Of a stretch of 64,000 nt of DNA, positions 14,834 through 45,851 are shown in pieces. Each line of letters starts with the position of its first letter. Positions within the stretch are counted from its first letter, which is position 1. The DNA comes from an uncultured Actinomycetes bacterium. GTDB lineage: Bacteria; Actinomycetota; Thermoleophilia; UBA2241. The translations under genes were made by a program, and so were the position numbers. The stretch spans positions 255,304 to 319,303 of the forward strand of contig CAVXRL010000008.1 of assembly GCA_963764225.1 (NCBI GenBank), read 5' to 3'. The notes under the pieces are model-generated. The model was not told the DNA's origin, did not search any database, and saw only the letters and a program-made list of their open reading frames with translations.

Positions 14834-16277
14834 GTGGAGACGTGCAAGATCCTGATCGGCGGCGACTGGGTAGCGGCAAGCGACCACGCCACCTTCGAGA
14901 CGAGGTCCCCGGCCGACCCGGCTGAAGTCCTCGCGGTGTTCCCGTCGGCGACCGCCGCCGACGCGGCGCAGGCGGCCGCCGCCGCCGCCGAGGCGTTCCC
15001 GGCCTGGCGGGCGACGCCGGCGCCGGCCCGCGGCGCCATCCTCTTCAAGGCGGCCGAACTGCTCACCGAGCGCCTGGACGAGGTCGCGCGCACGCTCACG
15101 CGGGAGGAGGGCAAGACGCTCGCCGAGGCCACCGGCGAGGTGCTCCGCGCGCGCGACATCCTCCGGTACTTCGCCGGCGAGGGCTGGCGGATGGGCGGCG
15201 ACGTCCTGCCGCCCAACGCGCCGGACGCGATGCTCTTCAGCCGCCGCGAGCCGCTCGGAGTGGTCGCCGCCATCACCCCGTGGAACTTCCCGATCGCCAT
15301 CCCGGCCTGGAAGCTGGCTCCGGCGCTCGTCTACGGCAACACCGTGGTCTTCAAGCCCGCATCGGACACGCCGCTCACCGCCCTTCGCCTGGTCGAGTGC
15401 CTCGTGGAGGCGGGCCTGCCCGACGGGGTGCTCAACTTCGTCACCGGCTCGGGAGCGGTCGTGGGAGGCGGCGTTCGCCGGCGATCCCGTGGTGCAGGGC
15501 CTCACCTTCACCGGGTCACGAGCCACCGGCTCGGACATCTACCCGCGCGCGGCCGGCCACGCCGCGCGCGTGCAGCTCGAGATGGGCGGCAAGAACCCCA
15601 CGATCGTCCTCGACGACGCCGACGTCGGCCTGGCCGTCAAGCTGGCCGTCCAGGGCGGCTTCGCGCTCACCGGCCAGAGTTGCACCGCCACCAGCCGCGT
15701 GATCGTCGAGGAGGGCATCGCCGACCGCTTCGCCGCCGCGCTGGCCGAGGCCGCCAACGCCCTCAACGTGGGCGACGGCCTCGACCAGGGGGTGCAGATG
15801 GGCCCCGCCGTGAGCGCGGCCCAGCTGGCCACCGACCTGGACTACGTGCGCGTCGGCGAGGAGGAGGGCGCGGACCTGCTGGCCGGAGGCGCCCGGGCCG
15901 GCGAGCGCGGCCACTACCTGCGCCCCACGGTGTTCGACGGCGTAGAGGTGCACAGCCGGCTCGCGCAGGAGGAGATCTTCGGGCCGCTGATCGGGATCAT
16001 CCGCGCCGCCGACGTCGACGACGCGATCTTCAAGGCCAACGCCGTCGGCTACGGGCTCGCGGCGAGCGTCGTGACCAACGACCTGCGCCGCGCGCTCACG
16101 TTCGTCGACCGTATCGAGGCCGGCGTCGTCAAGGTCAACGAGCCGACCACGGGCCTCGCGCTGCAGGCGCCCTTCGGCGGCTTCAAGCAGTCGAGCGCCA
16201 ACACCTTCAAGGAGCAGGGCCCGTCCGCGGTCGACTTCTACACGCGCACCAAGACGGTCTACATCAGCTACGGTTGA
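14834..16277 (+). pseudogene. NAD(P)-dependent aldehyde dehydrogenase, interrupted by a -1 frameshift near 15465 (G-run)
   Basis: N-terminal part reads in the frame of ORF 14834 (…ITPWNFP…VLNFVTGSGAVVG). C-terminal part reads in the frame of ORF 15489 (EAAFAGDPVVQGLTFTGS…EMGGKNP…SCTATSR…EEIFGPL). The two frames meet at gtgggaggcg. Confidence 0.7.
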
Positions 16278-16345
16278 GGCTGCGTGCCCAACCCGGGCTA
16301 CGCGGAGGTCTGTAGCCGCCGCACCCTCGGGGGTACAGTACGACC

Positions 16346-16585
16346 ATGGCCGCCGACCCGGCACAAGGCAAGCACATCCTGTTCGTCACAGGTCCTCAGC
16401 GCGAGGCGCTCTACGAGCACTTCTCCGCGCTGTTCCTCGGACGGGACGACGTGGAGGTCCGGATGGACCGCCGCGTCGCCGAGCGCCGGCGCTCGGCGCG
16501 GTCGCCGGTCGCCGGCGAGCGCCGCCGGCAGGAGCGCCGCCGGCGGCCGCCGGAGTGGATCGTCCCGCCCGGCGGCGGCATCTGA
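16346..16585 (+). CDS. hypothetical small protein with poly-Arg C-terminus
   Basis: 79-aa ORF with GC3-biased codons in an otherwise non-coding gap upstream of the methyltransferase operon. No recognisable domain. Confidence 0.3.
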   Translation: MAADPAQGKHILFVTGPQREALYEHFSALFLGRDDVEVRMDRRVAERRRSARSPVAGERRRQERRRRPPEWIVPPGGGI

Positions 16586-16734
16586 CCGTCTCCAGCGGCG
16601 CCGCCGCGCTGGTTCCTCAGTGCACAAGCCTTCGCAATTACCGGCGTAGCGGGGCCAAGAGGCGGTGCGCCGCAGGCACGCCGCCTATATACTCTGCACG
16701 TCCGTCCCGGGTAATCGTCGTGGAGGTTGTTGAG

Positions 16735-17538
16735 ATGCTGTTGATGGGTGAATCGATCAACGGGACGCGCAAGCAGGTCGCCGAGGCGATCCAGGCGCGT
16801 GATGCCGAGTTCATCAAGACTCTGGCCAAAGATCAGATCGAGGCAGGCGCGGGCCTGATCGACGTCAACGGCGGCGTCGCCGGCGGCGACGAGGTCGCGG
16901 ACCTCCTGTGGCTCATCGAGGTCGTCATGGGCGTCACCGACATCCAGCTCATGGTGGACTCCGCCAACCCCAAGGCGCTCGACGCCGGCGTGCAGGCCAT
17001 CATCGACGCCGGCGGCAAGGTGCCGTTCATCAACTCGATCAGCGGCGAGCAGCCGCGCATCGACGCGGTGCTGCCGCTCGTGGAGAAGCACAAGTGCCCC
17101 GTCGTCGGCCTCTGCCTCAGTGACGAGGGCATCCCGCCGACCGCCGAGGACCGCTTCGCGGTCGCCAAGCAGATCTACGACCTCTGCACCGAGGCCGGCC
17201 TGCCGGCCGAGGACCTCTGGATCGACCCGCTGGTCATGGCCGTCTCGGCCGACCCCAGCGCTCCCGGCGTCACCATGGAGACCCTCAGGCTGGTCAAGGA
17301 CCGCCTGCCCTCGAAGACCACCGGCGGGCTCAGCAACGTCAGCTTCGGCCTGCCGAACCGCGCGCTGCTCAACCGCACCTTCGTGGCCATGTGTGCCGGC
17401 CTCGGCCTCGACGGGCTGATCGTCGACGTGCGCAACAAGCAGATGATGGCCACCATCAAGTCGATCGAGGCGCTCCGCGGCGAGGACAACTTCTGCGGCT
17501 CGTACCTCAAGGCTCACCGCGCCGGCATCCTGGAGTAG
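16735..17538 (+). CDS. pterin-binding methyltransferase, AcsE/MtrH/MtgA-like (methyl-THF:corrinoid or methylcorrinoid:THF methyltransferase)
   Basis: MLLMGESINGTRK...DVNGG...INSISGE...GLSNVSFGLPNR, collinear with Moorella AcsE (MLIIGERINGMF...LGLSNVSQN...). GGAGG RBS. TATATACT -10-like box ~45 nt upstream. Confidence 0.75.
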   Translation: MLLMGESINGTRKQVAEAIQARDAEFIKTLAKDQIEAGAGLIDVNGGVAGGDEVADLLWLIEVVMGVTDIQLMVDSANPKALDAGVQAIIDAGGKVPFINSISGEQPRIDAVLPLVEKHKCPVVGLCLSDEGIPPTAEDRFAVAKQIYDLCTEAGLPAEDLWIDPLVMAVSADPSAPGVTMETLRLVKDRLPSKTTGGLSNVSFGLPNRALLNRTFVAMCAGLGLDGLIVDVRNKQMMATIKSIEALRGEDNFCGSYLKAHRAGILE

Positions 17539-17549
17539 GGAGCGGCAGC

Positions 17550-18662
17550 GTGAGCGCGCCTGAGCGCTGCCGCCTGCGCGACCTCGGAGTCGCCGTCGGC
17601 ACGCTGCCGGCCGGGCCGCTCAACGCCATCACCGACGTGCCGGGCGTGCGCGTCGGTCACTGCACGGTCTCGTGGGGCGGGCCCGATCTGCCGCAGGGCA
17701 GCGGGCCCGCCCGCACGGGAGTCACAGCCCTCTTCCCGCACGACGGCGACCTGTGGAACGGCCGCGTCGTCGCCGGCGCCCACGCCGCCAACGGGGTGGG
17801 CGAGCTCATCGGCATCAGCGCCATCCGGGAGTGGGGCCTCATCGAGACCCCCATCCTGCTCACCAACTCCCAGAGCGCCGGCGCCGTCTACGACGCCACG
17901 GTCCGCTGGCTCCTTGAGCGCAACCCTCGGGCGGGCATCGACGACGCCGTCATGCCCGTGGTGGGCGAGTGCGACGACGGGTCCCTCAACGACCTGCGCG
18001 GCATGCACGTGCAGCCGGAGCACGTGTGGGCCGCTCTCGAGTCTGCCGCGCCCGGTCCCGTGGAAGAGGGCTGCGTCGGGGCCGGCACCGGCATGTCGTG
18101 CTACGAGTTCAAGGCGGGCATCGGCACCTCGTCCCGCCTCGTCACCGCTCACGGCCGGCAGTACACCGTGGGCGTGCTGGCGCTGGCCAACTTCGGCGTG
18201 CGCCACCGCCTGCTGGTGGACGGCGTGCCGGTCGGGCGTGAGATCACGGACCTCCTGCCGGTGGAGGACCGCGAGGGCTCGTGCATCGTGGTGCTGGCCA
18301 CCGACGCTCCGCTCAGCGCGCGCCAGTGCGCGCGCATGGCCAGGCGCTGCTCGCTCGGGCTGGCGGCGACCGGCTCCTACGCCTCGGACGGCAGCGGCGA
18401 GATCATGGTGGCGTTCTCCACGGCCGCGCGCGTCCCGCGCGCTTCGGCGGAGCCGCTCGTGCTGACCACGGTGGGCAACGACCAGATGTACGGACTCTTC
18501 GAGGCCGCGGTGGACGCAACGGCCGAGAGCGTGTGCAACTCGCTCACGGCCGCGACCACCACGGTCGGGCGCGCCGGCAACACGGTCCACGCGCTGCCGC
18601 TGGACCGCCTCGTGGAGGCGCTGCGGCGCGCCGGCCGCCAGGCGCAGCTGCCCGGAGCCTGA
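17550..18662 (+). CDS. P1-family peptidase (DmpA/L-aminopeptidase D-Ala-esterase/amidase-like, S58)
   Basis: GVRVGHCT, LLTNSQSAGAVYDA and GAGTGMSCYEFKAGIGTSSR motifs. GTG start 11 nt after the previous stop. Confidence 0.75.
   Translation: MSAPERCRLRDLGVAVGTLPAGPLNAITDVPGVRVGHCTVSWGGPDLPQGSGPARTGVTALFPHDGDLWNGRVVAGAHAANGVGELIGISAIREWGLIETPILLTNSQSAGAVYDATVRWLLERNPRAGIDDAVMPVVGECDDGSLNDLRGMHVQPEHVWAALESAAPGPVEEGCVGAGTGMSCYEFKAGIGTSSRLVTAHGRQYTVGVLALANFGVRHRLLVDGVPVGREITDLLPVEDREGSCIVVLATDAPLSARQCARMARRCSLGLAATGSYASDGSGEIMVAFSTAARVPRASAEPLVLTTVGNDQMYGLFEAAVDATAESVCNSLTAATTTVGRAGNTVHALPLDRLVEALRRAGRQAQLPGA

Positions 18663-21506: not shown

Positions 21507-21507
<1 letters not shown>
19909..21507 (+). 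CDS. ABC transporter permease (DppC/OppC family) with a ~170-aa extra N-terminal membrane domain and a Gly/Ala-rich C-terminal tail
   Basis: Core OppC region (SWPGTARVIRSDTLRVRELSFIERAKAIG) is preceded by 3-4 additional hydrophobic helices and followed by ...AVAVAGGAGVGGGAGV...DDEEGGE. ATGA overlap with the upstream permease. Confidence 0.8.
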
Positions 21508-23628
<2,121 letters not shown>

Positions 23629-23701
23629 TCGTGAGGCCGGCCGGGGCGGTGCGCCGCGAAGCGCATCACCGCCCCGGCCGGCCCGCGTGTGGAGCATACG
23701 G

Positions 23702-25544
23702 ATGAGCCGGGACACGAGACGCAGCGACGCCGCGGCAGGGTACCTGCCGGCCACAGCGAGCCTGCTCTTCGCCGCGCTGCTCACGCTCCTGCTCGCGGCG
23801 CCGCTCCCGGCCGCCGCGGCGGCGTCCGCGCCGGCCGCCGCCGGCACGCCGGCCCCGCTCGAGTACAGCATCGGCACCGCCCAGGACTGTGACGGGCTCA
23901 ACCCGTTCCGCTCCTGGAGCTCGGTCTCCTGGGAGTGCTTCCGTCTCGGCTACGACTTCCTCACCTGGTACGACGCCGACTACCGCCCCGTGCCGGACAT
24001 CGCCGCCTCCTGGGAGGTCTCGGAGGACGGTCTCACCTGGACGTTCCACCTGCGCGAGGGCATGGAGTGGCAGGACGGCGTGCCGCTCACGGCGGCGGAC
24101 GTGGTCTTCACGTACGACCTCGTGCTCACCACGCAGCAGCCGGCCTACGTGCAGTACCTCAGCGGCGTCACCGAGGTGCGCGCGCCGGACGAGACGACCG
24201 TGGTCGTCGTCACGCGGCGCCCCAAGGCCGACATGCTGGCCATCGCCATCCCCATCCTGCCCGGAGCACATCTGGAAGAAGGTGGACCCCGACCGCCTGG
24301 CCGACTTCGAGAACCTGCCGTTCGTCGGGTCGGGGCCGTTCCGCGTCACCGGCCTGGAGGAGGGCAAGGAGGTGACGCTCGAGCCCAATCCCGCCTATCC
24401 GCCGGCGCTGGGCGGGGCTCCGGCGCTGACGCGGCTCACGTTCGTCGTGGGCCGCGACGCGTCCTCGCTGCTCGAGGAGTACAGGGCCGGGCAGCTCGAC
24501 GCCGTGGCCGACTTCCCGGCCACCCTGCAGCCGGCCTACGCCGAGGTGACGGGCACGACCACGGTCGCGGCGCCGGCCGTGGGGTTCCACGAGCTGGGCT
24601 TCAACTGCTGGCAGAGCCCACGGAGCAAGGGCGACCCGCTGCTGCGCGACGCCTCCGTCCGCCGGGCCGTGCACTGGGCCATCGACAAGGACAAGATCGT
24701 CGCCTCGGCCATGGCCGGACTCGCCGAGCCCGGCGCGTCGGTGGTCTCGCCGGCCCAGGGGGACTGGCACTGGGAGGCGCCGGACGACGCGTCGTACCGC
24801 TACGACCCCCGGCGCGCCAAGCAGATCCTGGAGGACGCCGGCTACGCCGACCGCGACGCCGACGGCATCCGCGAGGACGCCGCGGGGCACAAGCTCTCGT
24901 TCCGTCTCACCGCGCTCACCGAGTACCCGGCGGACCAGGAGGCGGCGCGGATGATCGTCCGCTGGTGCCGGGACGTGGGCATCGACCTGCGCCTCGAGGT
25001 CGTCGACGAGGCGGAGTTCAGCGACCGCATCTACGACGACGCCGACTACGACCTGTTCGTCTGGAGCTGGGGCGGCGACATCGATCCGAGCTTCATCCTC
25101 AGCACGTTCACCACGCGCCAGATCATGAGCTGGAGCGACAGCCAGTACTCCGACCCGGTGTACGACCGCCTGTACACGCTGCAGGCGCAGGCGGTCGACC
25201 CCGCTCACCCCGAGGACACGGCCCACCGCAAGGACCTGGTCGACGCCATGCAGAAGCTGCTGTACCGCGACGACCCGTACATCGTGCTCTGGTACAACGT
25301 GAACCTGCAGGCGTTCCGCGCGGACCGCTGGGCCGGGTACGTCATGGCGCCCGCCGGAGACGGGGCGCCGTTCTGGAACCAGCTGCGCTCCAGCTACATC
25401 TCGTTGCGCCCGGTGCGCGCCGCACAGCCCGCCGTGGAGGCGTCCAGGGCCTGGGTGTGGGGCCTGGTGGCGGGCGCCGTCGCCCTGGCCGCCGTCGGCC
25501 TCGCCGTGCTCAGGCGACGGCCACGCAGCACTGAGGATGTGTGA
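23702..25544 (+). pseudogene. ABC substrate-binding protein, family 5 (peptide/nickel type), with a +1 frameshift at ~24263; has a signal peptide and a C-terminal TM anchor
   Basis: Frame of ORF 23687 through ...AIAIPILP, then frame of ORF 23889 from EHIWKKVDPDRLADFENLPFVGSGPF. C-terminal WVWGLVAGAVALAAVGLAVLRRRPR is a predicted TM helix. Confidence 0.7.
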
Positions 25545-27057: not shown

Positions 27058-27064
27058 ACGCGTG

Positions 27065-28220
27065 ATGGCGATGGTCCGGTCCTCCTCCGACGGCCCGCAC
27101 GATGATCCGGCTTCGCCGATCATTCCATTCGTCCACGTCCAGGCGAGGGGCAGCTACCGCGAGCTCGGCCGCGCGGTCGGCGAGTCCGCGCGCGACCAGG
27201 TGCTGGCGTCGGTCGCCTTCTTCCGCGACAACTTCCCCGCGCTCACCGGCGGCCGGCTGACGTTCGCCGAGGCCGAGCGGCGCGCGCCGGCGTTCGCCGA
27301 GCACGCGCGCCGCCGGCTGCCGCAGTACGTGGCCGAGCTCGAGGGGCTCGCGGAGGGCTCCGGCGTGCCGTTCTCGCAGCTGCTCGTGCTCAATTGCGGC
27401 GAGGAGTTCACGGCCGACGAACCCCACGCGCCGGCGGAGGGGCGCTCGCCACACTCCGGCGACCACTGCACGGCAGTCGCGGTCGCCATGGACGGCCGTC
27501 ACGTCGTCGGTCACAACATGGACTGGTACGTCATCGACGCCGTCAACAACGTGCTCTTCGACCTCACGGTCCCGGACGGCACCCGCGTCATGGGCCTGGC
27601 CGGCGCGCCGTACCTGCTCATGCTCGGCATGAACAGCCACGGCGTGGGCAACGTCAGCAACTCCGTCCACTCCACGGACAACCGGGTGGGCGTGCCCAAC
27701 GTGTTCGTGCGCCGGTCGACGCTCGAGGCGCGGACCCTGGAAGAGGCGCGCGACCGCGGGCTCCTGGCCGACCGCGCCCGCGGCACCAACCAGTTCTTCG
27801 CGGACACCGAGCGGGCGGCTCTGGGACGTCGAGACCTCGGCCACCGCGCACGCGCACGCCGACCACACGGCGGCGGGCTTCATGGCCCACACCAACCACT
27901 ACGTCTCTCCCGAGATGCAACCGTACGAGGGCTACGGCGGCGGGGAGTCCGAAGTCCGTCTCTCGACCGCCGAACGCCTGCTGGCCGAGGGTCTCGCCGC
28001 GGGCGGCGACCCGGTGGACCTCGTCGCCCGCGTGCTGCGCACGCACGAGCCGTCACCCGAGGAGGCCATCTGCGGTCATCCGCTGCCGGGCACGTCTCCC
28101 GCCGATCAAGGCATGACCGTGGGCAGCATCATCTGCGACCTCGACGAGCGGCGCATGTACGCCTGCGCGGGACCGCCGTGCGAGAACGCGTACCAGGTGT
28201 TCGAGATGGGGGAGACGTGA
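27065..28220 (+). pseudogene. C45-family NTN hydrolase / acyl-CoA:6-aminopenicillanic-acid acyltransferase-like, with a +1 frameshift at ~27810-27820
   Basis: GDHCTAVAV N-terminal-nucleophile Cys context. Frame of ORF 27062 through ...GTNQFFADTE, then frame of ORF 27882 (LWDVETSATAHAHADHTAAGFMAHTNHYVSPEMQ...). Confidence 0.65.
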
Positions 28221-28238
28221 CCGTGCACGGAGCTGGTC

Positions 28239-29867
28239 GTGGCCGGCGGGCGCGTCGTCGACGGCTGCGGCAACCCGTGGTTCCGCGGCGACGTCGCCGT
28301 CTCCGGCGACCGCATCGCCGCGATCGGCGCGCCGGGCACGCTGCGCGGGCGGCGCGTCGTCGACGCCGGCGACCGCTACGTCACGCCGGGGTTCATCGAC
28401 CCGCACACCCACTCGGACCTCACCATCCTCCTGCACCCGCGGGCCGAGACGGCGGTGCGCCAGGGCGTGACCACCCACGTCACCGGCAACTGCGGCATGT
28501 CGGCCGCGCCGCTCACCGAACAGCACAGGGTCGACGCGGTGCACAACTGGGCGCACTACGCGTGGGGTCTGGAGCGCGTGGCCTGGGACTGGCGCACGTT
28601 CGGCCAGTACCTGGCGGCCGTCCGCCGCGAGGGCCACGCGATCAACATCGCGCCCCTCGTCGGCCACGGCGCGCTGCGCCTCGCCGTGGCCGGCTTCGCC
28701 GAGCGCGCGGTCACCGAGCGCGAACTGGCGCGCATGGAGCGCCTGCTGGACGCGAGCCTGCGCGCCGGCGCGCACGGCATGTCCAGCGGGCTCGTCTACC
28801 CGCCCGGCTGCTTCGCGACCACCGAGGAGCTCCTGCGGCTCTGCCGCGTGGTCGCCCGCCACCACGGCATCTACACCTCGCACGTGCGCGGCGAGCGCGA
28901 GACGATCCTGCAGGCCGTGGCCGAGGCGCTCGAGCTGGGGCGCGCGGCGGGGTGCCCGGTGGAGGTGTCGCACAACGCGCCCAAATGGGGCGCGCCGGAG
29001 GACGCCGAGGCCAACCTCGAGCTCATCGAGGAGGCGCGCCGCGGCGGCCTGGACGCGACCACCGACAACGACGTGCACACCGACCTCGCGCCGCGCCTCT
29101 CGCGGGCGCTGCCGCAGCCGGTGCTCGACCTCGACCACGACGCGCTCATCCGTCTGCTCTCGGACCGCGAGGCGCGCGAGGCCCTGCACCGGGAGGTGCT
29201 GGAGGACACCCTGCCCGGCGCCGGCTATGCGGGCCTGGTGCGGCACGGCCGCTTCGACCGCATCGTGGTGTTCCACGCCGGCCGCCACCCGGGGCTGCGC
29301 GGCCGCTCGATCGCCGACGTCGCCGCGGAGCGCGGCGCCGACCCGTGGGACACCTTCCTCGACCTCATCGTCGAGGAGGACGACGACATCGTCGGGCTCT
29401 TCGACTACATCGAAGAGCGGAACATCCGCGCCCTGCTGCGGAGCCCGATCGCCATGGTCTCCTCGGACGGGCTCGTCATGCAGCCGGCCGAGGAGCTCGA
29501 CGACGCCTCCGTGTACTGGCCGTGCAGCTACGGTGAGTACCCGGGCGTGCTCGAGCGCTACGTGCGCGAGGAGCCGGTGCTGCGCCTCGAGGAGGCGGTG
29601 CGCAAGATGACCTCCTTCCCGGCGCAGCGCTTCGGCCTGTCCGACCGCGGCGTGCTGCGCCCGGGCCTCAAGGCGGACCTCGTCGTCCTCGACCTCGAGC
29701 GCGTGCGCGACCGCGCCACGAACCTGTTCCCGCACGCGTTCCCGTTCGAGAACATCCCGCACGCCTCGCCGGAGGGCATCGACCTCGTGCTCGTCAACGG
29801 GACGCCGGTGCTCGACGAAGGCGAGATCACCGGCGAGCTGCCGGGCCGCGTGCTCAAGCGCTCCTGA
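28239..29867 (+). CDS. N-acyl-D-amino-acid deacylase (D-aminoacylase), amidohydrolase superfamily
   Basis: GRVVDGCGNPWFRGDVAVSGDRIAAIG, GFIDPHTHSD and HVRGE motifs. GTG start at 28239 slightly truncates the usual N-terminus; a rare CTG at 28233 is an alternative. Confidence 0.75.
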   Translation: MAGGRVVDGCGNPWFRGDVAVSGDRIAAIGAPGTLRGRRVVDAGDRYVTPGFIDPHTHSDLTILLHPRAETAVRQGVTTHVTGNCGMSAAPLTEQHRVDAVHNWAHYAWGLERVAWDWRTFGQYLAAVRREGHAINIAPLVGHGALRLAVAGFAERAVTERELARMERLLDASLRAGAHGMSSGLVYPPGCFATTEELLRLCRVVARHHGIYTSHVRGERETILQAVAEALELGRAAGCPVEVSHNAPKWGAPEDAEANLELIEEARRGGLDATTDNDVHTDLAPRLSRALPQPVLDLDHDALIRLLSDREAREALHREVLEDTLPGAGYAGLVRHGRFDRIVVFHAGRHPGLRGRSIADVAAERGADPWDTFLDLIVEEDDDIVGLFDYIEERNIRALLRSPIAMVSSDGLVMQPAEELDDASVYWPCSYGEYPGVLERYVREEPVLRLEEAVRKMTSFPAQRFGLSDRGVLRPGLKADLVVLDLERVRDRATNLFPHAFPFENIPHASPEGIDLVLVNGTPVLDEGEITGELPGRVLKRS

Positions 29868-31678: not shown

Positions 31679-32416
31679 TCAGGACATCACCAGCGAGCCG
31701 TTGTCGACGGCGATGTCGACTCCCGTGAGGCCGTCCGTCTCCAGGCAGAAGCGGACGGCCGCCCCGATGTCGCCGGGGGCGACGAGCCGCTCGGCGGCCA
31801 CCCGGGCCGCGGCGCGCAGCGTGGCGTCCCGGTGCTCGTCGTCGTCCAGGTCCACCGGCCCGGGCGCCACCCCGCACACGCGCACCAGGTCCGGGGCCCA
31901 CGCCCGGGCGAGGATCCTGACCAGGTGGATCTGGGCCGCCTTGGCGGCGCTGTGCGCGGCGAAGGTGGCCCAGGGCTGCAGGCCCAGATAGTCGGTGAGG
32001 ACCACGATGGCGCCGCCGGTGGTCAGCCGCTCGTGGGCGGCGACGGCGCTGAAGAAGAAGCCTTTGGCGATGGTGTCCAGCGAGGCGTCCCAGGAGGCCT
32101 CGTCGATCTGCTGCGGCTGCTTGGGCACGAACGGCCCGCTGGCCGCGTAGACGAGGCCGTCCAGGCCGCCGAGCGCCTCCGCGGCGGCGGCCACGAGGCC
32201 CGCCGCGCCGGCGGCGGTGCGCACGTCGCCCTCCACCACGAAGGCGGAGGGCGCTCCCGCCGCGAGCAGCGCCTCAGCCTGCGCGCCGGCCTCTTCCGTC
32301 CAGGCGCGCGTGGAGACGGCGAGTGCGGCGCCGCTCCCGGCGAGGTCGAGCGCCACGGCGCGTCCCAGGCGGCGCACCCCGCCGACCACCAGCAGTCTGG
32401 CGCCGGCGACGTTCAC
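31679..32416 (-). CDS. short-chain dehydrogenase/reductase (SDR)
   Basis: LLVVGGVRRLGRAVA (TGxxxGxG-like) and a YxxxK region. GTG start overlaps the stop of the upstream beta-lactamase-like gene (GTGA). Confidence 0.7.
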   Translation of the reverse strand: MNVAGARLLVVGGVRRLGRAVALDLAGSGAALAVSTRAWTEEAGAQAEALLAAGAPSAFVVEGDVRTAAGAAGLVAAAAEALGGLDGLVYAASGPFVPKQPQQIDEASWDASLDTIAKGFFFSAVAAHERLTTGGAIVVLTDYLGLQPWATFAAHSAAKAAQIHLVRILARAWAPDLVRVCGVAPGPVDLDDDEHRDATLRAAARVAAERLVAPGDIGAAVRFCLETDGLTGVDIAVDNGSLVMS

Positions 32417-33424
32417 GCCGGCTCTCCCAGGTGCTCGTACAGCACGCCGGCGATCTCCGCGATGGCCGCGGACGCCTGCGCCTTGGCCTCGCAGCCCAGG
32501 CCTTTCAAGTAGACGACCATGACCATAGGTGCCCCCCCGGGAGTGTAGACGATCGCGGCGTCGTTGCTCGTGCCGCTCACGCCGCCGGTCTTGTTGGCCA
32601 CGAGGGTCCCGTCCGGCAACCCTGCGGGGATCTTCTCCCGCCACTCCTGGCGCGCCAGCACCTCCACCATCAGACGGCAGGAGGGCGCCGAGGCGCAGCG
32701 GTTCTGGGCGATCATCGCCAGCAGCTCGGCCATGTCGCGAGGGGACCCCCTGTTGTCGAGCGCCTGGTCCACGGCGAACGAGTCCTCGTACGTCGAGCGA
32801 CTCGTCGCGTCCCCAGCGGCGCTCGTACAGGTGCAGGAACTCCGCGCCGCTCAGCCGCGCGTTCTCCTCGAGCACGCGGCGGAACGCCTCCTCGCGCGCG
32901 CCGCGCTCCTCGAGCTCCCGCCAGCGGGCCACGGTCTGCGGCCCGCCCAGGCCGGCCCACTCCTCGCCGGCCCCGCACCCGATGAGGAAGTACTCGCGGT
33001 TGGGCATGGAGCAGTCGATCGTCTCGAGGCCGAGGCGGCGCATCGTCTCGTTGACGGAGGCGAGGCCCACCAGCCTCCAGAGCATGTCGGTGGCCGTGTT
33101 GTCGCTCAGCGTGATCATGAGGTAGAGCAGGTCACGCACGCTCGGCCGCAAGCCCTCGTGGCAGTGGATCAGCGTGCTGCCCGGGCTCTTGTCCCCCTCG
33201 GTGAGCGTGAGGCGGTCGTCGAGGCGCAACACGCCCGCGTCGACCTGGCGCAGCAGCTCGACCATCACCGGGATCTTGAAGCAGCTCGCCATGGGGAAGA
33301 GCTCGTCCGCGTTGACGTACACCTCGGCGCTGCTCGCCAGGTTGCGCGCGGCCACCCCCACGGCGCCTCCGAGCGGCGCGGCGATGGCCGCGACGTTCTC
33401 GTGGACGCCCCTCTCCGTCTGCAC
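32413..33424 (-). pseudogene. class A beta-lactamase-like serine hydrolase without signal peptide, with a -1 frameshift at ~32780-32795
   Basis: SCFK (SxxK), SDN and ANKTGG (KTG) motifs are split between the frame of ORF 31679..34786 (N-terminal part) and ORF 32413..32772 (C-terminal part). GTG start with a GGGAGGGAG RBS. Confidence 0.6.
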
Positions 33425-34969: not shown

Positions 34970-36715
34970 ATGGGCGACCTGCTACGCATCGACCTCACCA
35001 CGCGCACGACTTCAGAAGACACCGTGCCGCCCGAGCTCATCAAGGAGCTCATCGGCGGCAAGGGCATCGGCACGCACTATCTCATGCAGGAGGTGGGCCC
35101 TGAGGTAGAGCCGCTGAGCCCCGAGAACAAGCTGATCTTCGTGGTCGGGCCCATGGGCGGCACCACGATGCTCGGCAGCAACCGCTACGCCCTCTACTTC
35201 GCCTCGCCGCTCACCGGCGGCTACGGCGAGTGCTACTCGGGCGGCAACCTCACGCCCCAGTTCGCGAAGACCGGCTACAAGGTGGTCATCGTCGAGGGCA
35301 AGGCCGACGCGCCCGTCTACCTCGAGATCAGCGAGCAGGGCGCGCAGTTCCACGACGCCTCCGACCTGTGGGGCATGGACGCCTTCAAGGCCGAGGACGA
35401 GATCCTGGCGCGCACCGAGCACAACAAGGCCCAGGCCTGCGTCATCGGACCGGCGGGCGAGAAGCTGGTGCGCTTCGCCTGCGTCAACAACAACTACTGG
35501 CACCAGCTCGGCCGCGGCGGCCCGGGCGCGGTGTACGGCTCCAAGAACCTCAAGGGTCTCGTCTGGCACGGAGACAAGAAGGTCGAGGTCGCGCGGCCGG
35601 ACGACTTCAAGGCGGTCGTGCGCGACCTCATCGAACGCACCAAGGACGACGCGGGCGTCGCCGCCTACCAGCGCGGCGGCACGCTCAACATGGTGCGCAT
35701 CATGAACGGGGCCAACGCGTTCCCCACGCGCTACTGGCGCAAGGGCAGGATGGAGAACTTCGAGCGCATCACGGTCGAGACCATGCTCGCGGAGCACGGC
35801 ACCGTCAACCAGACCTGCCCGCCCTGCGTGTTCAAGTGCGTCAAGCGCAACACGGTGTTCGAGGGGCGCCACAAGGGCCTCGTGTGCGAGGGCCCCGAGT
35901 ACGAGACCGCCTACGTCTTCGGCGGCCTCTGCGAGATCGACGACTTCGCCGAGCTCATGTGGCTCAACGACATCTGCGACCGGCTGGGCGTCGACACCAT
36001 GGACGCCGGCAACCTCGCCGCCCTCGGCATCGAGTGCGCCGAGCGCGGGCTCATCGACGAGAAGCTCACGTGGAACGACCCGGTCGGCGTCGGCGCGTTC
36101 CTCGAGAAGATCTGCCTGCGCGAAGGCATCGGCGACCTGTTCGCCGAGGGCGTCGTGGCGGTCGCCGAAGAATACGGCCTCGAGGACGTCGCGGTGCACG
36201 CCAAAGGCATGGCGCCTCCCGGCTACGAGCCGCGCAAGATGAAGGGCATGGGCCTCGGCTTCGCGACCACCGCGCGCGGCGCCTGCCACCTGCGCGCCAC
36301 CATGTACAAGCCCGAGCTCATGGGCGTCACCACCTACGGCGAGGTCGCGGACAAGGCTCCCGTCTACGTGGACTGGGAGGACCGCCTCACCATCATGGAC
36401 ACGCTCGTCTACTGCCGCTTCTACCGCGACCTGGTGCAGTGGCCGTACATCACCGCCGTGGTCAACGCCGTCATCGGCACCGACTACACCGCGGACGACC
36501 TGCACCGCATCGCCAACCGCATCATCACGATGACGCACGAGTTCAACGCGGCGCGGGGCATCGGACGCGAGACCGAGAAGCTCCCGGACTGGGTCACCGA
36601 GAAGCCCATGGAGGACGAGGAGGCGCTCACGTTCCCGCAGGGCGAGATGACGTACATGCTCGGCGAGTATTACAAGCTGCGCGGCTGGGGCGAGCTGCCG
36701 CCGCTGGAGGCCTGA
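34970..36715 (+). CDS. aldehyde:ferredoxin oxidoreductase (tungsten/molybdopterin AOR family)
   Basis: 581 aa. N-terminal LRIDLTTRT...IGGKGIGTHYL and a Cys cluster (CPPCVFKC) for [4Fe-4S], collinear with the AOR family. GAAGGAG RBS. Confidence 0.85.
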   Translation: MGDLLRIDLTTRTTSEDTVPPELIKELIGGKGIGTHYLMQEVGPEVEPLSPENKLIFVVGPMGGTTMLGSNRYALYFASPLTGGYGECYSGGNLTPQFAKTGYKVVIVEGKADAPVYLEISEQGAQFHDASDLWGMDAFKAEDEILARTEHNKAQACVIGPAGEKLVRFACVNNNYWHQLGRGGPGAVYGSKNLKGLVWHGDKKVEVARPDDFKAVVRDLIERTKDDAGVAAYQRGGTLNMVRIMNGANAFPTRYWRKGRMENFERITVETMLAEHGTVNQTCPPCVFKCVKRNTVFEGRHKGLVCEGPEYETAYVFGGLCEIDDFAELMWLNDICDRLGVDTMDAGNLAALGIECAERGLIDEKLTWNDPVGVGAFLEKICLREGIGDLFAEGVVAVAEEYGLEDVAVHAKGMAPPGYEPRKMKGMGLGFATTARGACHLRATMYKPELMGVTTYGEVADKAPVYVDWEDRLTIMDTLVYCRFYRDLVQWPYITAVVNAVIGTDYTADDLHRIANRIITMTHEFNAARGIGRETEKLPDWVTEKPMEDEEALTFPQGEMTYMLGEYYKLRGWGELPPLEA

Positions 36716-36850
36716 GCAGACCCGCCGCCCCTCGGCGATCGCCGAGGGGGACGGCGGACGCGGATGGGCCCGGGACGCTCGCGAGAGAGTCCCGGGCCCA
36801 TCCGCGTCCGGGCGGGAGCGGCAGCGCCGTCCGCCTCGAGTGTCGGCTGC

Positions 36851-38491: not shown

Positions 38492-38568
<77 letters not shown>

Positions 38569-38578
38569 TCACCTTCCT

Positions 38579-39482: not shown

Positions 39483-39501
39483 CCGCCGCGCTCTTCCCGG
39501 G

Positions 39502-39718: not shown

Positions 39719-41163
39719 ATGACGCGTCTCCCCGCCGCCTGCCTCCGCCTTGAACGCCGCGTGAGCGACACGCTCGCGCGCACCGAGGCGGTGCGCGCCG
39801 GCGAGCGGGCGCTGCTGCTGCTCTCGGGAGGGGCCGACTCCATGGCCCTGCTCTCCCTGCTGCAGCGCCGCCGACCGCCGGCTCGGGCTCGGTCTGCAGC
39901 TGGCCGCGCTGCACGTGGACTACGGGCTGCGCGGCGCGGACTCGGACCGCGACCGGCGCATCGTGGAGCGTGCCTGCGCCGGCGCGGGCGTGCCGCTGCA
40001 CGTGGAGCTGCTGCGCGGCGCCCTCTCCGGCCCTGACTTCCAGGCGCGCGCCCGCGACGTCCGCTACGGGCGTGCGCGGCAGCTGGCGGCCGAGCACCGC
40101 TACGACGTGGTGGTCACCGCGCACAACCGCGACGACCAGGCGGAGACGGTGCTGTACCGCCTGGTCAAGTACGCCTCACCGCGCGGCCTCGTGGGCATGC
40201 GGGTACGGGACGGCGACCTCGCCCGGCCGCTGCTCTGCGCCGGCGCGACGGAGATCCGGGAGTACTGCCGGCTCGCCGGCGTGGAGTACGGAGAGGACGT
40301 CACCAACGCGGCCCCGCTGTACGCTCGCAACCTGCTGCGTCTCGAGGTCCTGCCCCTGCTCGAAACGCTCAACCCGCGCGTGGCCGAGACGCTGGCGGCC
40401 ACGGCCGAGCAGGCCGCCGCGCGAGGCGGAGGTGCTCGCGACGGTGACGGTCGCGGCGCGGGCGCGCGTGAGCCTGCCGCCCGCCCCGGGCGAACTCGCG
40501 CGCGTCAGCCTCGCCGCGCTCGCCGCCGAGACGCCGGCCGTGCGCGCCCTCGTGCTGCACGACCTGCTGCGCGACGCGCTGGGCGGGTCGGCGCTGGTCG
40601 GGCGCAGTCTCGTGGAGGCGCTTTCGCTGCTGGCGACGCGGCGGGACGACGCCGGCCGCGTCGACCTCGGGCGCGGCCTCGAGGCGGTCCGCGGCGGCGG
40701 CGAACTGCGCCTGCGCGCCGCCTCCTCGCCGCACGACTGCGAGCAGGCCGGAGTGTCCGGCGAGGAGCTCGAGGAGGCCGGGGACGCCGGCCTCCCGCTC
40801 GCCTTCTGCGGTAGGCGCTGGCGGCTCCGGCTGCGGCCCGGCGAGGTCTTCGACCGCGAGGCCGCCCTCGCCGGCGAGGCGTTCGTCGGCCTGCCGTCCG
40901 CGCCGCGGCGTGTGGTCTTGCGGCACCCGCGCCGCGCCGAGCGCTTCGCCCCGTCCGGACTCGGCGGCGAGACCACGGTCGCCCGCTACCTCGCCGCGGC
41001 CCGCGTGCCCGCCGGTCTGCGCGCGCACGCCGTCGTGCTCGACGTGGACGGCGCGGCGGCCTGGGTCGGCGGGCTCGCGGCCTCCCCGGGCAGGGTTGCG
41101 CACGGCTACCGGGTGGCCCACAGTAGAGTCTTCACACTGCACGTCATCCAGGAGGGAACGTGA
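39719..41163 (+). pseudogene. tilS: tRNA(Ile)-lysidine synthetase, interrupted by two single-base frameshifts (~39872-39880 and ~40425-40435)
   Basis: The SGGADSMALLSLL PP-loop, the ...LAALHVDYGLRGADSD part and the C-terminal part lie in three different frames (ORFs 39524, 39915 and 39970). The gene is essential, so the breaks are almost certainly assembly errors. Confidence 0.75.
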
Positions 41164-41726: not shown

Positions 41727-41818
41727 TCAGCGGGGTATGGTACGTTCACCGGACGTCTGTTTTGCAGGCATAACAGCCATGCAGGCTCCGGCGTCAGTCC
41801 CCATCAAGAAGGGTCACC

Positions 41819-44014
41819 GTGAGCAGATTCATCCGTAGCGCCCTGTTCCCCATCCTCATCGTCATCATCGTGGCGATGTTCATCGAGTGGGTCATCTCGG
41901 GCAACAGGGCCAACACCACGCCGAAGGCCATCTACGCCGCGCCGTTCGTCACCACGCAGACCGTCCTCCAGAGCGACCTGCAGAACGCCGTGGTCAAGTC
42001 GATCATCTTCGACTCCGGTGACTCCTCTGTGGCCAAGGTGACCGAGGTCGGGGGGCTGCAGTACTACGTGACCGGCATCACCGACCAGGCTCTGCAGCCG
42101 CAGGAGATCAAGACGAGCGCTCCCAATGTGGTGGTCTCCGAAGGCACCGTCACGCCACCCAAGCCGGCCGACGTCCAGCCGTCCTTCACCCAGGACGTCG
42201 TCAACGGCAACGTCGCGTCCGTGGTCATGAACGTCAAGGACCAGACCATGGACGTGACGCTCAAGCCGGTCGACGGCAAGCAGGAGCAGTACACCGTCGC
42301 CTACGCCGATCCGGTCGCCACCACCGAGTTCCTGCAGCAGTACAACGTGCCGTTCGACACCACCAGCCCGAAGAGCCCGTGGTGGACGAGTGCGCTGTTC
42401 ACCATCCTGCCGATCCTGCTCATCATCGGCTTCTGGTTCTTCATCATGAACCAGATGCAGGGCGGCGGCTCCAAGGTCATGAGCTTCGGCAAGAGCCGCG
42501 CCAAGCGCGTCAGCGTCGACTCGCCCAAGGTGACGTTCAAGGACGTCGCCGGGGCCGACGAGGCGGTCGAGGAGCTCCACGAGATCAAGGAGTTCCTCGA
42601 GAACCCCAAGAAGTTCCAGCAGCTCGGCGCGCGCATCCCCAAGGGCGTCCTGCTGTACGGCCCGCCCGGCACCGGCAAGACGCTGCTCGCGCGCGCCGTG
42701 GCCGGCGAGGCGGGCGTCCCGTTCTTCAGCATCAGCGGCTCGGACTTCGTCGAGATGTTCGTCGGCGTGGGCGCGTCGCGCGTGCGTGACCTGTTCGACC
42801 AGGCCAAGCAGAACGCGCCCTGCATCATCTTCGTCGACGAGATCGACGCCGTCGGCCGCCACCGCGGCGCCGGCATGGGCGGCGGCCACGACGAGCGCGA
42901 GCAGACGCTCAACCAGCTGCTCGTCGAGATGGACGGCTTCGAGATGAAGGACAACATCATCCTCATCGCCGCCACCAACCGCCCCGACATCCTCGACCCG
43001 GCGCTGCTGCGCCCGGGCCGCTTCGACCGCCAGATCGTCGTCGACCGTCCGGACCGCCCGGGCCGCAAGATGATCCTCGAGGTCCACACGCGGGGCAAGC
43101 CGATCGACAAGGACATCGACCTCGACGCGCTCGCCGCCCAGACGCCGGGCTTCACCGGGGCCGATCTCGCCAACCTGGTGAACGAGGCGGCCCTGCTCGC
43201 GGCTCGGCACGGCAACAAGCTCATCACGACGACCGAGCTCGAAGAGGGCATCATGCGCGTGCTCGCCGGCCCCGAGAAGAAGACGCGCATCATCAGCGAG
43301 AAAGAGAAGGCGATCACCGCCTACCACGAGATGGGCCACGCTCTGGTCGGGCACTTCCTCGAGTACACGGATCCGGTGCACAAGATCTCCGTCGTCAGCC
43401 GCGGCCAGGCGCTGGGCTACACCATCTCGCTGCCGACCGAGGACAAGTTCCTGACCACCAAGCAGGAGCTCATGGACACGCTCTCCATGACGCTCGGCGG
43501 GCGCGCCGCGGAAGAAGTCGTCTTCGGCGAGATCACCACCGGCGCCGCCAACGACCTCGAGAAGGCGACGGCGACCGCCAAGCAGATGATCATGCGCTAC
43601 GGCATGAGCGAAGAGCTCGGCCCGCGGACGCTGGGGCACGACCAGTCCATGCCGTTCCTGGGACGCGAGTTCCAGCAGCAGGCCGACTACTCGGAGGAGA
43701 TCGCCCGTCAGATCGACGACGAGATCCGCCGCATCATCGAGGAGGCGCACCAGCGCGCCAAGGACCTCCTCAGCGAAAAGCGTCACCTGCTCGACGGGAT
43801 CAGCAAGATCCTCATCGTCCGGGAGACCATCGAGGCGCATGAGTTCCAGGCACTGGTCGACGGATTGCCTGAGGACGAGGTCTTCCGCGAGCGCGACGAG
43901 AAGGAGCGCCGGCGCCGGTCCGGCCCGCCGGAGCCCGAGAAGCGCCAGCGCGTCAAGCAGCCGCCGGTGCCCAAGCCCGCCCACGTGAACCCCGTCAACC
44001 CGGAGGCGACGTGA
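41819..44014 (+). CDS. ftsH: ATP-dependent zinc metalloprotease FtsH (with enlarged ~155-aa periplasmic domain and basic C-terminal tail)
   Basis: [16 protein letters not shown]+ motif, SRF second region of homology, and HEMGHA zinc motif. Confidence 0.95.
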
Positions 44015-44044
44015 TCGCTCTCCCCGGCGCCTGCTGACGCCCAC

Positions 44045-44614
44045 GTGGACCACGACAAGATCAAGACCGGGGTACGCCTCATCCTCGAGGGTATCGGCGA
44101 AGACCCGGAGCGCCCGGGGCTGCAGAAGACGCCGCAGCGCGTGGCCGACATGTACGACGACATCTTCGCGGGTATCGGCGCGCCCGACCCGGCGGAGTTG
44201 CTCACGGCCATCCCGGGCGACCACCATCGAGAGATGGTGCTCATCCGGGACATCGACTTCTACTCGATCTGCGAGCATCACCTGCTGCCGTTCCACGGCG
44301 TTGCGCACGTGGCGTACATCCCCAGCGACCACGGGCACATCGCCGGGCTGAGCAAGCTCGCCCGTGTGGTGCGCCAGGTGGCGGCCCGCCCGCAGCTCCA
44401 GGAGCGCATCACGAGTGAGGTCGCCGACGCCATCGAGACCGCGCTCCTGCCCACCGGCGCGGCCGTGCTCATCGAGGCCGAGCACCTGTGCATGAGCATG
44501 CGCGGCGTGCGCACGCCGGGCGCCAAGACGGTCACCAGCGCCGTGCGCGGCCTCATCCAGAGTAACGAGGCTACCAGGGCCGAGGTGTTCGCCCTCATCA
44601 ACGCACCGCGCTGA
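44045..44614 (+). CDS. folE: GTP cyclohydrolase I
   Basis: CEHHLLPFHG motif. Confidence 0.9.
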   Translation: MDHDKIKTGVRLILEGIGEDPERPGLQKTPQRVADMYDDIFAGIGAPDPAELLTAIPGDHHREMVLIRDIDFYSICEHHLLPFHGVAHVAYIPSDHGHIAGLSKLARVVRQVAARPQLQERITSEVADAIETALLPTGAAVLIEAEHLCMSMRGVRTPGAKTVTSAVRGLIQSNEATRAEVFALINAPR

Positions 44615-44625
44615 CGGCGCGCGCC

Positions 44626-45465
44626 ATGCCGGCCGCGCCGACCTTCGCGCTCGAGCTGCAGTTCCCGGCGGTCATGGGGATCGTCAACGTCACGCCCGAC
44701 TCGTTCTCGGACGGCGGGCAGTTCTTCGCCGCCGACGCCGCCCTGGAGCAGGCCCTCACGCTGGTGCGTGAGGGCGCCGCGGTCATCGACATCGGCGGCG
44801 AGTCCACGCGGCCGGGCTCCGAGCTGGTCACCCTGGACGAGGAGCTGCGCCGCGTGCTGCCGGTGGTCGAGGCGCTCGCCGGCAGCGTCGGGGTCCCCAT
44901 CTCCGTCGACACGATGAAGGCCGAGGTCGCCCGGCGCGCGCTCGCGTCCGGCGCGACCATGCTGAACGACGTGAGCGCGTTCCGCTACGACGAGGAGATG
45001 GTGGACGTGGTGGCCGAGTCCGGCGCGCCGGTCTGCCTCATGCACATGCAGGGCATGCCCAAGACCATGCAGGAGGACCCCCGGTACGACGACGTGGTGG
45101 ACGAGGTCCTCGCGTTCCTCGAGGCGCGCCTGGCGTTCGCGCTGGCCCGCGGCGTGCGCGAGGAGCAGGTCATGATCGACCCCGGCATCGGGTTCGGCAA
45201 GACCGTGGCGCACAACCTGGCGCTGCTCGACGGTCTGCACCGGTTCACCGCGCTCGGCCGTCCCGTCCTGCTCGGCGCCTCCCGCAAGCGGTTCCTCGGG
45301 GCGATCCTGGGCGCGGAGCCGTCCGGCCGCGCCACCGGGACGGTGGCGACCACCGTCATCGGCTACCTCGCCGGGGCGCACATCTTCCGCGTCCACGACG
45401 TCAAACCCAACTTTGAGGCGCTGCGCGTAGCCCTCGCGGTGCGCGAGGGCGTCGTCGCCCCCTGA
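44626..45465 (+). CDS. folP: dihydropteroate synthase
   Basis: GIVNVTPDSFSDGG and DIGGESTRPG motifs. Confidence 0.9.
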   Translation: MPAAPTFALELQFPAVMGIVNVTPDSFSDGGQFFAADAALEQALTLVREGAAVIDIGGESTRPGSELVTLDEELRRVLPVVEALAGSVGVPISVDTMKAEVARRALASGATMLNDVSAFRYDEEMVDVVAESGAPVCLMHMQGMPKTMQEDPRYDDVVDEVLAFLEARLAFALARGVREEQVMIDPGIGFGKTVAHNLALLDGLHRFTALGRPVLLGASRKRFLGAILGAEPSGRATGTVATTVIGYLAGAHIFRVHDVKPNFEALRVALAVREGVVAP

Positions 45466-45484
45466 TCGGCAAGGAGACCGCACC

Positions 45485-45851
45485 ATGACGCGAAGCCTGT
45501 CCATCGTCCTCAACGGCATCGAGCTGCGCGGGCGCTGCGGCGTCACCGCCCAGGAGCGGGCCATCGGCCAGACGCTCTCCATCGACGTGCGCCTCGATCC
45601 GCAGCCGCGCGGCGCCGGCCAGAGCGACGAGCTCGAGGACACCGTCAACTACAGCCAGATCGTCAACTACGTGCGCGGCGTGGTGGAGGGCGGCGAGTTC
45701 AAGTTGCTCGAGCGGCTCGCCACCGTGCTCTGCGACGGCCTCTGGGACGAGTTCGACCCAGTGACTCGTCGAGGTGGCCGTCAGCAAGATCGCGCCGCCC
45801 GTGGCGCTGCCCGTGCACGCGGCGCGCGTCGAGGTGGTACGCACCTCTTGA
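45485..45851 (+). pseudogene. folB: dihydroneopterin aldolase, with a +1 frameshift near 45765-45775
   Basis: N-terminal part (GIELRGRCGVTAQERAIGQTLSIDV) in the frame of ORF 45485. The sensible C-terminus (...EVAVSKIAPPVALPVHAARVEVVRTS*) is in another frame and ends with a TGA that overlaps the folK TTG. Confidence 0.6.

Follow-up and report, generated by a model that had tools for sequence, protein, structure and literature searches.

The window, as the whole 64-kb stretch of DNA analysed here is called, contains nine places at which a coding sequence continues in a different reading frame. They are spread over eight genes, whose predicted products are an aldehyde dehydrogenase, a fused OppD/OppF ABC ATPase, a family-5 solute-binding protein (SBP), a C45 autoproteolytic acyltransferase/hydrolase, an amidohydrolase, a class-A beta-lactamase-like protein, TilS and FolB (Table 1). 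All nine are +1 insertions of a single base, which move the frame from f to f+1, and -1 events number zero. The initial annotation had listed eight frame hops. A GC3 frame plot, a 7-state segmentation and Pfam matches confirmed all eight, each within about 12 nt of where it had been placed, but the list was incomplete, as a ninth +1 insertion lies in the amidohydrolase gene. The frame switches of the eight were positioned by the frame plot and the segmentation, and the inserted bases were located by nucleotide alignments with 9-46 related uncultured Thermoleophilia sequences per site. The junctions of all eight hops are free of stop codons.

Table 1. Frameshifted genes of the window, with the position of each frame change and inserted base and the fraction of aligned relatives that have one base less at the site
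Gene	Coordinates	Strand	Corrected product (aa)	Frame change	+1 insertion	Relatives one base shorter
Aldehyde dehydrogenase	14834..16277	+	480	1 to 2 at 15451	15471-15476	9/9
Fused oppDF ABC ATPase	21507..23628	+	706	2 to 0 at 22498	within 22488-22508	43/46
Family-5 solute-binding protein	23687..25544	+	618	1 to 2 at 24259	24259-24265 (CCCGGAG)	17/17
C45 autoproteolytic acyltransferase/hydrolase	27062..28220	+	385	1 to 2 at 27811	A at 27810	15/15 and 39/39
Amidohydrolase	28217..29867	+		1 to 2, after 14 nt (segmentation)	~28229-28230, four codons past the GTG start	13-14/15
Class-A beta-lactamase-like	32413..33424	-	~336	minus-strand change at 32789	32791 (C on the + strand)	15/15
tilS	39719..41163	+	480	1 to 2 at ~39865; 2 to 0 at 40412	A at ~39864; one base at 40421-40423	15/15 at each site
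folB	45485..45851	+	121	1 to 2 at 45764	A at 45764	14/14

In the aldehyde dehydrogenase gene, the Pfam family Aldedh is matched over 1-198 in the first frame and 182-461 in the second, and NCBIfam dehydrogenase models match the corrected ORF over 5-483/483. The SBP gene likewise carries SBP_bac_5 in two frames (2-96, then 101-363), and its relatives read CCC-GAG or CC-GGAG at the site. The AAT/C45 match of the C45 gene is divided between frames into 5-112 and 129-171, and the corrected protein matches C45_proenzyme 1-313/313 above the cut-off. In the beta-lactamase-like gene, Beta-lactamase2 is matched over 1-116 and then 130-213, and the corrected ORF has no internal stops. The hop in oppDF had been assigned to the OppD/OppF junction. 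It lies instead within the C-terminal oligo_HPY region of OppD, where this domain of the first half stops at the hop; the original frame stays free of stops until 23703, and in the relatives that lack the extra base the frame continues uninterrupted. The corrected sequence is a single fused oppDF ORF with an OppD-like and an OppF-like half.

The tilS gene starts with an ATG at 39719 and a SGGADS PP-loop in frame 1, and its Pfam matches, PP-loop followed by TilS_C, extend through the succeeding frames. Corrected TilS matches TilS_N 3-189/189 above the cut-off. Its length of 480 aa is that of many TilS homologues, with which it can be aligned from end to end (100%). The TilS search found no full-length relative with more than 80% identity, the best partial match (87%) being from the metagenome-assembled genome (MAG) L001. 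In folB, FolB is matched over 1-87/113 in frame 1, whereas the final ~28 codons, up to a stop at 45849, are in frame 2; the corrected protein matches TIGR00525 folB 3-116/116 above the cut-off. In the amidohydrolase gene a GTG at 28239 can serve as an alternative start and so hides the lesion. The start codon of the relatives overlaps the C45 stop.

The uniform direction of the changes was assessed by a binomial test, which gave p = 0.008 for eight insertions out of eight and, calculated by hand, p = 0.004 for nine out of nine. Such an insertion-only pattern is unexpected of natural mutation and therefore counts for an assembly error. The direction had been read as -1 in the aldehyde dehydrogenase gene, the beta-lactamase-like gene and the second tilS site, which all proved to be +1 insertions; for the OppD/OppF site, the SBP, the C45 hydrolase, the first tilS site and folB the original +1 call holds. 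The inserted bases are of roughly even composition, A-rich for a 70% GC genome, and no sequence motif is common to the insertion sites. The nine sites fall within a 30-kb part of the 64 kb (range test, p ~0.013-0.025, with detection less sensitive outside 14-47 kb), and this clustering calls for something local to explain it, for instance low coverage or a mixture of strains.

Most of the sites had been thought to sit in short G/C runs, but at least five are non-homopolymer insertions (A, C, A, G/C within GCGCG, and A), in which the inserted base differs from both its neighbours. Lengthening of a G/C run of 1-3 bases is conceivable at only about four of the nine sites, namely 15472 (GG), ~22494 (CCCC at ~22494-22500), 24262 (CCC/GG) and 28230 (GG). 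These four could be read as a run plus one base, as homopolymer-length errors of the pyrosequencing or Ion Torrent type would produce. This origin is nevertheless extremely improbable for the set, since five insertions do not resemble either neighbour, the runs are merely 1-4 bases long, and under-calls, that is deletions, are absent although flow-based chemistry gives both kinds of error. Of the two technologies originally offered as an explanation, long reads thus fit the data, whereas pyrosequencing would be expected to give errors in homopolymer length, which these are not.

A different possibility is that the insertions are real and that the organism is undergoing gene decay, in which case tilS and folB would be among nine newly formed pseudogenes. 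The frame hops do exist in the sequence, and some of the genes hit (those for the Opp transporter, C45 hydrolase and beta-lactamase-like protein) could in principle be dispensed with. However, the essential tilS gene is struck twice and folB once, and none of the lesions recurs among the relatives compared. When one base per site was deleted, seven ORFs regained their full length without internal stops and matched their families from end to end. No lesions other than the +1 insertions, such as nonsense codons, deletions or IS elements, were seen in the affected genes. GC3 is 0.9-1.0 on either side of each site, and the GC signal by codon position has lost none of its strength downstream, so that the codon bias has been kept. 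Identity to relatives is also similar upstream and downstream of the sites, in a comparison where between-species divergence swamps any decay that followed a lesion. In decay of the Mycobacterium leprae type, stops, deletions and IS elements occur side by side, codon bias is lost, lesions are shared within a lineage and essential genes are spared. The window resembles it in having many frameshifted genes in a short stretch, but these hallmarks of decay are not found there. Taken with the sister genomes described below, real mutation is very unlikely.

The uniform +1 direction would also suit programmed recoding, in which the cell decodes the extra base by ribosomal frameshifting or transcript editing. 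The +1 frameshift sites of the prfB type are shared by different species and lie in a defined slippery, stop and SD-like context. The sites of the window share the +1 direction with them but are private and heterogeneous: they are conserved in no relative, have no common motif, and coincide with neither in-frame stops nor slippery runs. Since such sites are, moreover, found in none of the non-MFD genomes of the clade, recoding is hardly conceivable here.

The window is most closely related to Thermoleophilia MAGs of the Microflora Danica (MFD) collection, which are Nanopore-only genomes made by Flye assembly and one round of Medaka polishing (PMC12313526). L001 is ~91% and L045 ~87% identical at the nucleotide level, with synteny over at least 21 kb, and the window is identical to none of these MAGs. 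Exact look-ups of three of its intact proteins (AFOR, OppC and FolP) in a gene-position index gave no record, and its species was absent from the protein and contig collections searched. At the protein level, 88 frame changes were found in 17 of the 26 MFD loci, compared with 0 in 20 loci from non-MFD MAGs. The genes affected include those for TilS, FtsH, Hpt, FolE and FolP. TilS is broken in L001, L013, L033, L038 and L040, at positions that differ from those in the window, and L038 has five breaks in FtsH within one locus and two in TilS. At the DNA level, private events of a length other than a multiple of three numbered, per locus, 28 in L045, 23 in L040, 14 in L038, 12 in L030, 9 in L046, 7 in L041 and 5 in L034. 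As in the window, almost all of these private events are +1 and most lie outside homopolymers; they are regionally clustered, with different positions in each genome, and the density of insertions in the Nanopore-only Thermoleophilia MAGs reaches ~13 per 10 kb. In a control set of 19 other public metagenome contigs of the clade, 213 kb contained 4 events; the window had 8 in 33.9 kb.

That sister Nanopore MAGs carry like lesions in other genes (FtsH, Hpt, FolE, FolP) and the non-MFD loci carry none speaks further against real mutation. It would otherwise have to be assumed that the extra bases are truly in the DNA and that Thermoleophilia tolerate or decode +1 insertions in essential genes (tilS and folB here; ftsH, hpt, folE and folP in the sisters) through +1 recoding or transcript correction, a notion to which we give next to no credence. 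The nine hops are, judging from the sequence and its comparison with relatives, very probably residual one-base consensus insertion errors of an error-prone long-read assembly rather than dead genes. The view of the initial annotation that the frame hops reflect an indel-prone assembly rather than pseudogenisation is thus borne out by five independent lines, namely the privacy of the lesions, their repair by a single base, the absence of decay, the insertion-only direction and the signature shared with the sister Nanopore MAGs. TilS, FolB and the other affected genes are presumably intact in the organism. The error signature indicates that the sequencing behind the window was most likely Nanopore-only, of the Flye and Medaka kind.

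Consensus indels of Nanopore-only assemblies are known from IDEEL-type tests (Sereika et al. 2022, PMC9262707), and R10.4 assemblies reach near-finished quality only from about 40x coverage (PMC9262707). The lesions described here are similar in that single-base indels split intact genes and are private to each assembly; their density differs between bins, and they are removable by accurate reads or reference-guided frameshift repair. Residual Nanopore consensus errors have, however, been described mainly as homopolymer indels (PMC9262707), whereas those of the window and its sister MAGs are almost exclusively +1, lie mostly outside homopolymers and are enriched at variable positions. The insertion-only, non-homopolymer pattern thus departs from the textbook expectation for this technology.

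In 57 of 77 real insertions (74%), the inserted base equals the allele that at least one relative has in the adjoining alignment column, compared with 136 of 457 simulated insertions (30%; odds ratio 6.7, p = 3e-13). This test uses between-species variation as a proxy for variation within a population. The enrichment suggests that the consensus errors arise at strain-variable sites. At many insertions, co-assembled strains probably differ by a SNP and the consensus would retain both alleles side by side, yielding an extra base. Candidates for such doubling are found at 40421 (GC[G][C]GAG, against GCG or GCC in relatives), 24262 (CC[C][G]GAG) and 39864 ([C][A]GC). Whether such allele doubling is a systematic error mode of Nanopore-only metagenome consensus, contaminating many public MAGs that serve as species representatives, we regard as an evenly balanced question.

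The same enrichment bears on a further source of the extra bases, namely their addition after assembly, whether through an error in polishing or editing or through deliberate simulation, instead of consensus calling from noisy reads. The insertion-only pattern and the roughly even, A-rich base composition would be in keeping with it, as would the Medaka polishing in the MFD pipeline. Random spiking is, however, not expected to favour the alleles of adjoining columns, and the identical signature occurs in public sister MAGs. If a polishing step were the source, it would still be an assembly artefact and overlap with the explanation by consensus errors. A separate post-assembly origin is accordingly highly improbable, and consensus errors from noisy long reads remain the preferred reading.

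The finding is a data-quality warning for annotation and not a biological one. Automatic ORF calling will break up or shorten at least eight genes of the window (aldehyde dehydrogenase, oppDF, SBP, C45 hydrolase, the start of the amidohydrolase, beta-lactamase-like, tilS and folB), and pseudogene calls, calls of metabolic gaps (folate synthesis, lysidine formation) and completeness estimates derived from the assembly would be wrong. Many Nanopore-only Thermoleophilia MAGs with such insertions are species representatives in public collections. An insertion-only, non-homopolymer signature at variable sites would also offer no target for homopolymer-aware polishing.

Other candidate frameshifts in the window were rejected, as they proved to be normal starts or ends of genes. 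At 3912, where UDG was thought to pass into TsaE, the UDG frame continues as a Pro/Ala/Glu-rich tail to QLGLF and a stop, and TsaE has its own ATG. The candidate at 49755 is the TTG start of Dus, and the 95 nt before it are GC-rich intergenic DNA. RadA, with a candidate at 63450, is continuous in one frame. The ORFs 53700-55472 and 55414-56661 overlap by 59 nt (55414-55472), and the second begins at an ATG of its own and encodes an N-terminal membrane helix. As an additional handle on indel errors, structured RNAs were sought by Rfam and tRNA scans of the window, which yielded one tRNA only. The groES/groEL region is intact, although the GC3 segmentation labelled it as non-coding.

At a GC content of ~70%, long ORFs stay open in several frames of the window, and ORF lists alone are misleading; a 493-aa ORF at 14834-16315, for instance, follows the true frame for only half of its length. 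Therefore, reading frames were tracked by three methods: the GC signal by codon position, a 7-state segmentation in which in-frame stops are forbidden, and stop-to-stop intervals per segment. Stop-free frame switches occur at eight positions (see table), and the segmentation also gave a 14-nt frame blip at 28215-28228. At each of the eight sites, Pfam recognizes consecutive pieces of a single family model split over two frames. The eight frame hops claimed in the initial annotation are thus all real.

Frame-shifting insertions and other features of the window (f0-f2, reading frames)
Feature	Position (strand)	Frame switch	Relatives lacking extra base	Homology across the switch
Aldehyde dehydrogenase	15471-76	15451	9/9	Aldedh 1-198, then 182-461 (Pfam)
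oppDF, gene 21507-23628 (+)	22488-508	22498	43/46	OppD oligo_HPY domain end coincides with hop at 22498; f2 stop-free until 23703
SBP	24259-65	24259	17/17	SBP_bac_5 2-96, then 101-363 (Pfam)
C45 hydrolase	27810	27811	39/39 and 15/15	AAT 5-112, then 129-171 (Pfam)
Amidohydrolase, start region (28217-28240)	~28229-28230
Beta-lactamase-like	32791	32789 (-)	15/15	Beta-lactamase2 1-116, then 130-213 (Pfam)
tilS, first	~39864	~39865	15/15	ATG 39719 and SGGADS PP-loop in f1; remaining PP-loop domain in f2
tilS, second	40421-23	40412	15/15	TilS_C in f0
folB	45764	45764	14/14	FolB 1-87/113 in f1; final ~28 codons in f2; stop 45849
Uracil-DNA glycosylase (UDG)	3158-4123 (+)
groES and groEL	11566-13516 (+)
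Conserved gene cluster	16555-36715
oppDF linker	~22570-22645
Aldehyde:ferredoxin oxidoreductase	34970-36712
Hairpin	36760-36806
tRNA, CAU anticodon	38492-38568 (+)
Low-GC stretch	53400-57400
First ORF in low-GC stretch	53700-55472 (+)
Second ORF in low-GC stretch	55414-56661 (+)
Third ORF in low-GC stretch	56658-57287 (+)

Three of the undisrupted proteins of the window have no exact match on record. With the aldehyde:ferredoxin oxidoreductase as query, species-representative genomes yielded 46 loci, nearly all from uncultured Thermoleophilia MAGs and syntenic with the window over 24.9-46.7 kb; nucleotide identity to the window is about 91% for locus L001 and about 87% for L045. A metagenome scan with OppC added another 64 contigs, over approximately 14-32 kb of the window. 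At all eight sites the relatives, without exception or nearly so, are shorter than the window by exactly one base, and therefore all eight are +1 insertions. Consistently, every frame change in the segmentation runs from f to f+1, and the -1 direction previously assigned to three of the sites is wrong. A ninth private +1 insertion, the bracketed G in CACG[G]AG, falls within the amidohydrolase gene, four codons from the start, and in relatives the start codon of this gene overlaps the C45 stop; the insertion was hidden because a GTG at 28239 can act as an alternative start. The earlier list holds for its eight sites, but it missed this one and was imprecise in direction and context. The screen against relatives found no private frameshifting deletions in coding DNA. 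At the 22.5-kb site the relatives' reading frame continues straight through, and the corrected oppDF is a single fused 706-aa ORF of two ABC ATPase halves connected by a variable linker.

Deletion of one base per site yielded seven stop-free ORFs with proper terminal stops. The corrected aldehyde dehydrogenase matches its family over 5-483/483 and the C45 hydrolase matches C45_proenzyme over 1-313/313, while the TilS N-domain (3-189/189) and folB (3-116/116) matches are above cut-off. Corrected TilS has 480 residues, exactly as do many TilS proteins that align with it at 100% coverage; the top one among them shares 80% identity. GC3 on either side of each site is 0.9-1.0, and the two flanks of an insertion site show similar identity to relatives.

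All nine lesions are insertions (binomial 0.008 for 8/8 and, by hand, 0.004 for 9/9), and the affected window genes contain neither nonsense codons nor larger deletions or mobile elements. Their coding signal shows no erosion, and the genes hit include tilS twice and folB once. Together, these observations indicate an artefact rather than decay. The initial annotation had placed most sites in short G/C runs and considered pyrosequencing-type errors. Only about four of the nine insertions can be described as lengthening such a run, and in the 25-47 kb block the inserted base differs from both neighbours at five sites (ccg[A]gcg, gta[C]gtc, tgc[A]gcg, cgc[G]cga, gtg[A]ctc), so flow-chemistry homopolymer errors do not fit. 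Even jointly, real pseudogenes, flow-chemistry errors, post-assembly corruption and programmed recoding are an improbable explanation; the frame hops are almost certainly an assembly artefact and biologically not a feature.

The strongest argument for the artefact comes from sister assemblies. The Microflora Danica (MFD) long-read catalogue, the source of 26 of the 46 genome loci, was built from Nanopore-only reads with Flye and one Medaka polishing round, and its authors flag Nanopore-associated errors in lower-coverage MAGs (PMC12313526). R10.4 Nanopore assemblies are reported to attain near-finished quality only from about 40x coverage (PMC9262707). When every locus was screened for private, non-multiple-of-three events, several MFD loci proved riddled with +1 insertions (28 events in L045, 23 in L040, 14 in L038, 12 in L030, 9 in L046, 7 in L041 and 5 in L034). 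Almost all events are +1, mostly non-homopolymer, A/T-enriched and clustered along the contig, and the density of private +1 insertions reaches about 13 per 10 kb. In a tblastn check with 16 corrected window proteins, 88 frame changes were spread over 17 of the 26 MFD loci and none was found in the 20 non-MFD loci, many of whose contig names show MEGAHIT or SPAdes patterns. The TilS frame is interrupted, at positions other than in the window, in L001, L013, L033, L038 (twice) and L040. In L038 the essential protease FtsH is broken five times with its sequence perfectly conserved, and thus its gene cannot be a pseudogene. Nineteen other public metagenome contigs had 4 events in 213 kb, including one compensating +1/-1 pair, compared with 8 in 33.9 kb for the window. 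The window is the same phenomenon at a moderate density of about 2.4-2.7 insertions per 10 kb. Its private insertions, restorable ORFs and the same lesions in Nanopore-only loci bear out the earlier reading of an indel-prone assembly, and from the error signature we infer a Nanopore-type platform. Yet the insertion-only, mostly non-homopolymer spectrum is unlike the Nanopore consensus errors described in the consulted literature. The artefact has practical consequences for annotating such assemblies and for their use as species representatives, a role that public Nanopore-only Thermoleophilia MAGs serve.

In several places in the window, one column varies among relatives between two alleles that correspond to the inserted base and the base next to it (GCG/GCC at 40421, CCC/CCG at 24262, CGC/AGC at 39864, G/C at 32791). 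This pattern was tested on 77 private insertions outside homopolymers, drawn from the window together with seven MFD loci. In 57 cases (74%) one or more relatives carry the inserted base as an allele of the adjoining column, against 136 of 457 (30%) when insertions were placed at random in these genomes by simulation (odds ratio 6.7, p = 3e-13), with the reservations that between-species variation is only a stand-in for variation within populations and that gaps are placed partly arbitrarily. Insertions simulated in clean genomes gave 116/352. This suggests that allele doubling at strain-variable sites introduces errors into the consensus of Nanopore-only Thermoleophilia MAGs: consensus calling over a strain mixture would keep both SNP alleles side by side and so create a +1 insertion. 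Regional clustering of insertions fits such an error. The nine insertions span 15.47-45.76 kb (range test: p about 0.025 with eight sites and, by hand, about 0.013 with all nine), and clustering within the window is suggestive only, since the screen against relatives covered roughly 14-47 kb; for the genes at 0-15 and 46-64 kb, the Pfam matches are full-length and single-frame.

Three further candidate hops and an ORF overlap were rejected as frame changes. The GC3 segmentation's change at 3912 is due to a ~140-aa Pro/Ala/Glu-rich tail, through which the UDG frame runs on to a QLGLF* end that resembles a beta-clamp-binding motif. At 49755 Dus starts at its own TTG, at 63450 RadA is continuous, and the ORFs that overlap at 55.4 kb meet there at an ordinary gene boundary. 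In the surrounding stretch GC falls to 0.61-0.63; its first and third ORFs carry methylation motifs of type IV pilin-like character at their N-termini, whereas the second begins with a membrane helix. The intact groES and groEL, the stretch most conserved with metagenome relatives (~90% nt), have lower GC3 than neighbouring genes, and the segmentation accordingly scored the groES region as non-coding.

The sole tRNA in the window, 1.15 kb upstream of tilS, could be the TilS substrate tRNA-Ile2 rather than tRNA-Met. Between the aldehyde:ferredoxin oxidoreductase gene and a convergent minus-strand gene lies a perfect GC-rich hairpin (GGATGGGCCCGGGAC...GTCCCGGGCCCATCC), which, given compensatory base changes in L045, L046, L040 and L012, looks like a bidirectional terminator. 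Some 40 Thermoleophilia MAGs and metagenome contigs (among L001-L110) share the gene order of a cluster of pterin-binding protein, S58 peptidase, Opp transporter, MttB-like methyltransferase, C45 hydrolase, amidohydrolase, PucR regulator, alanine dehydrogenase and aldehyde:ferredoxin oxidoreductase.
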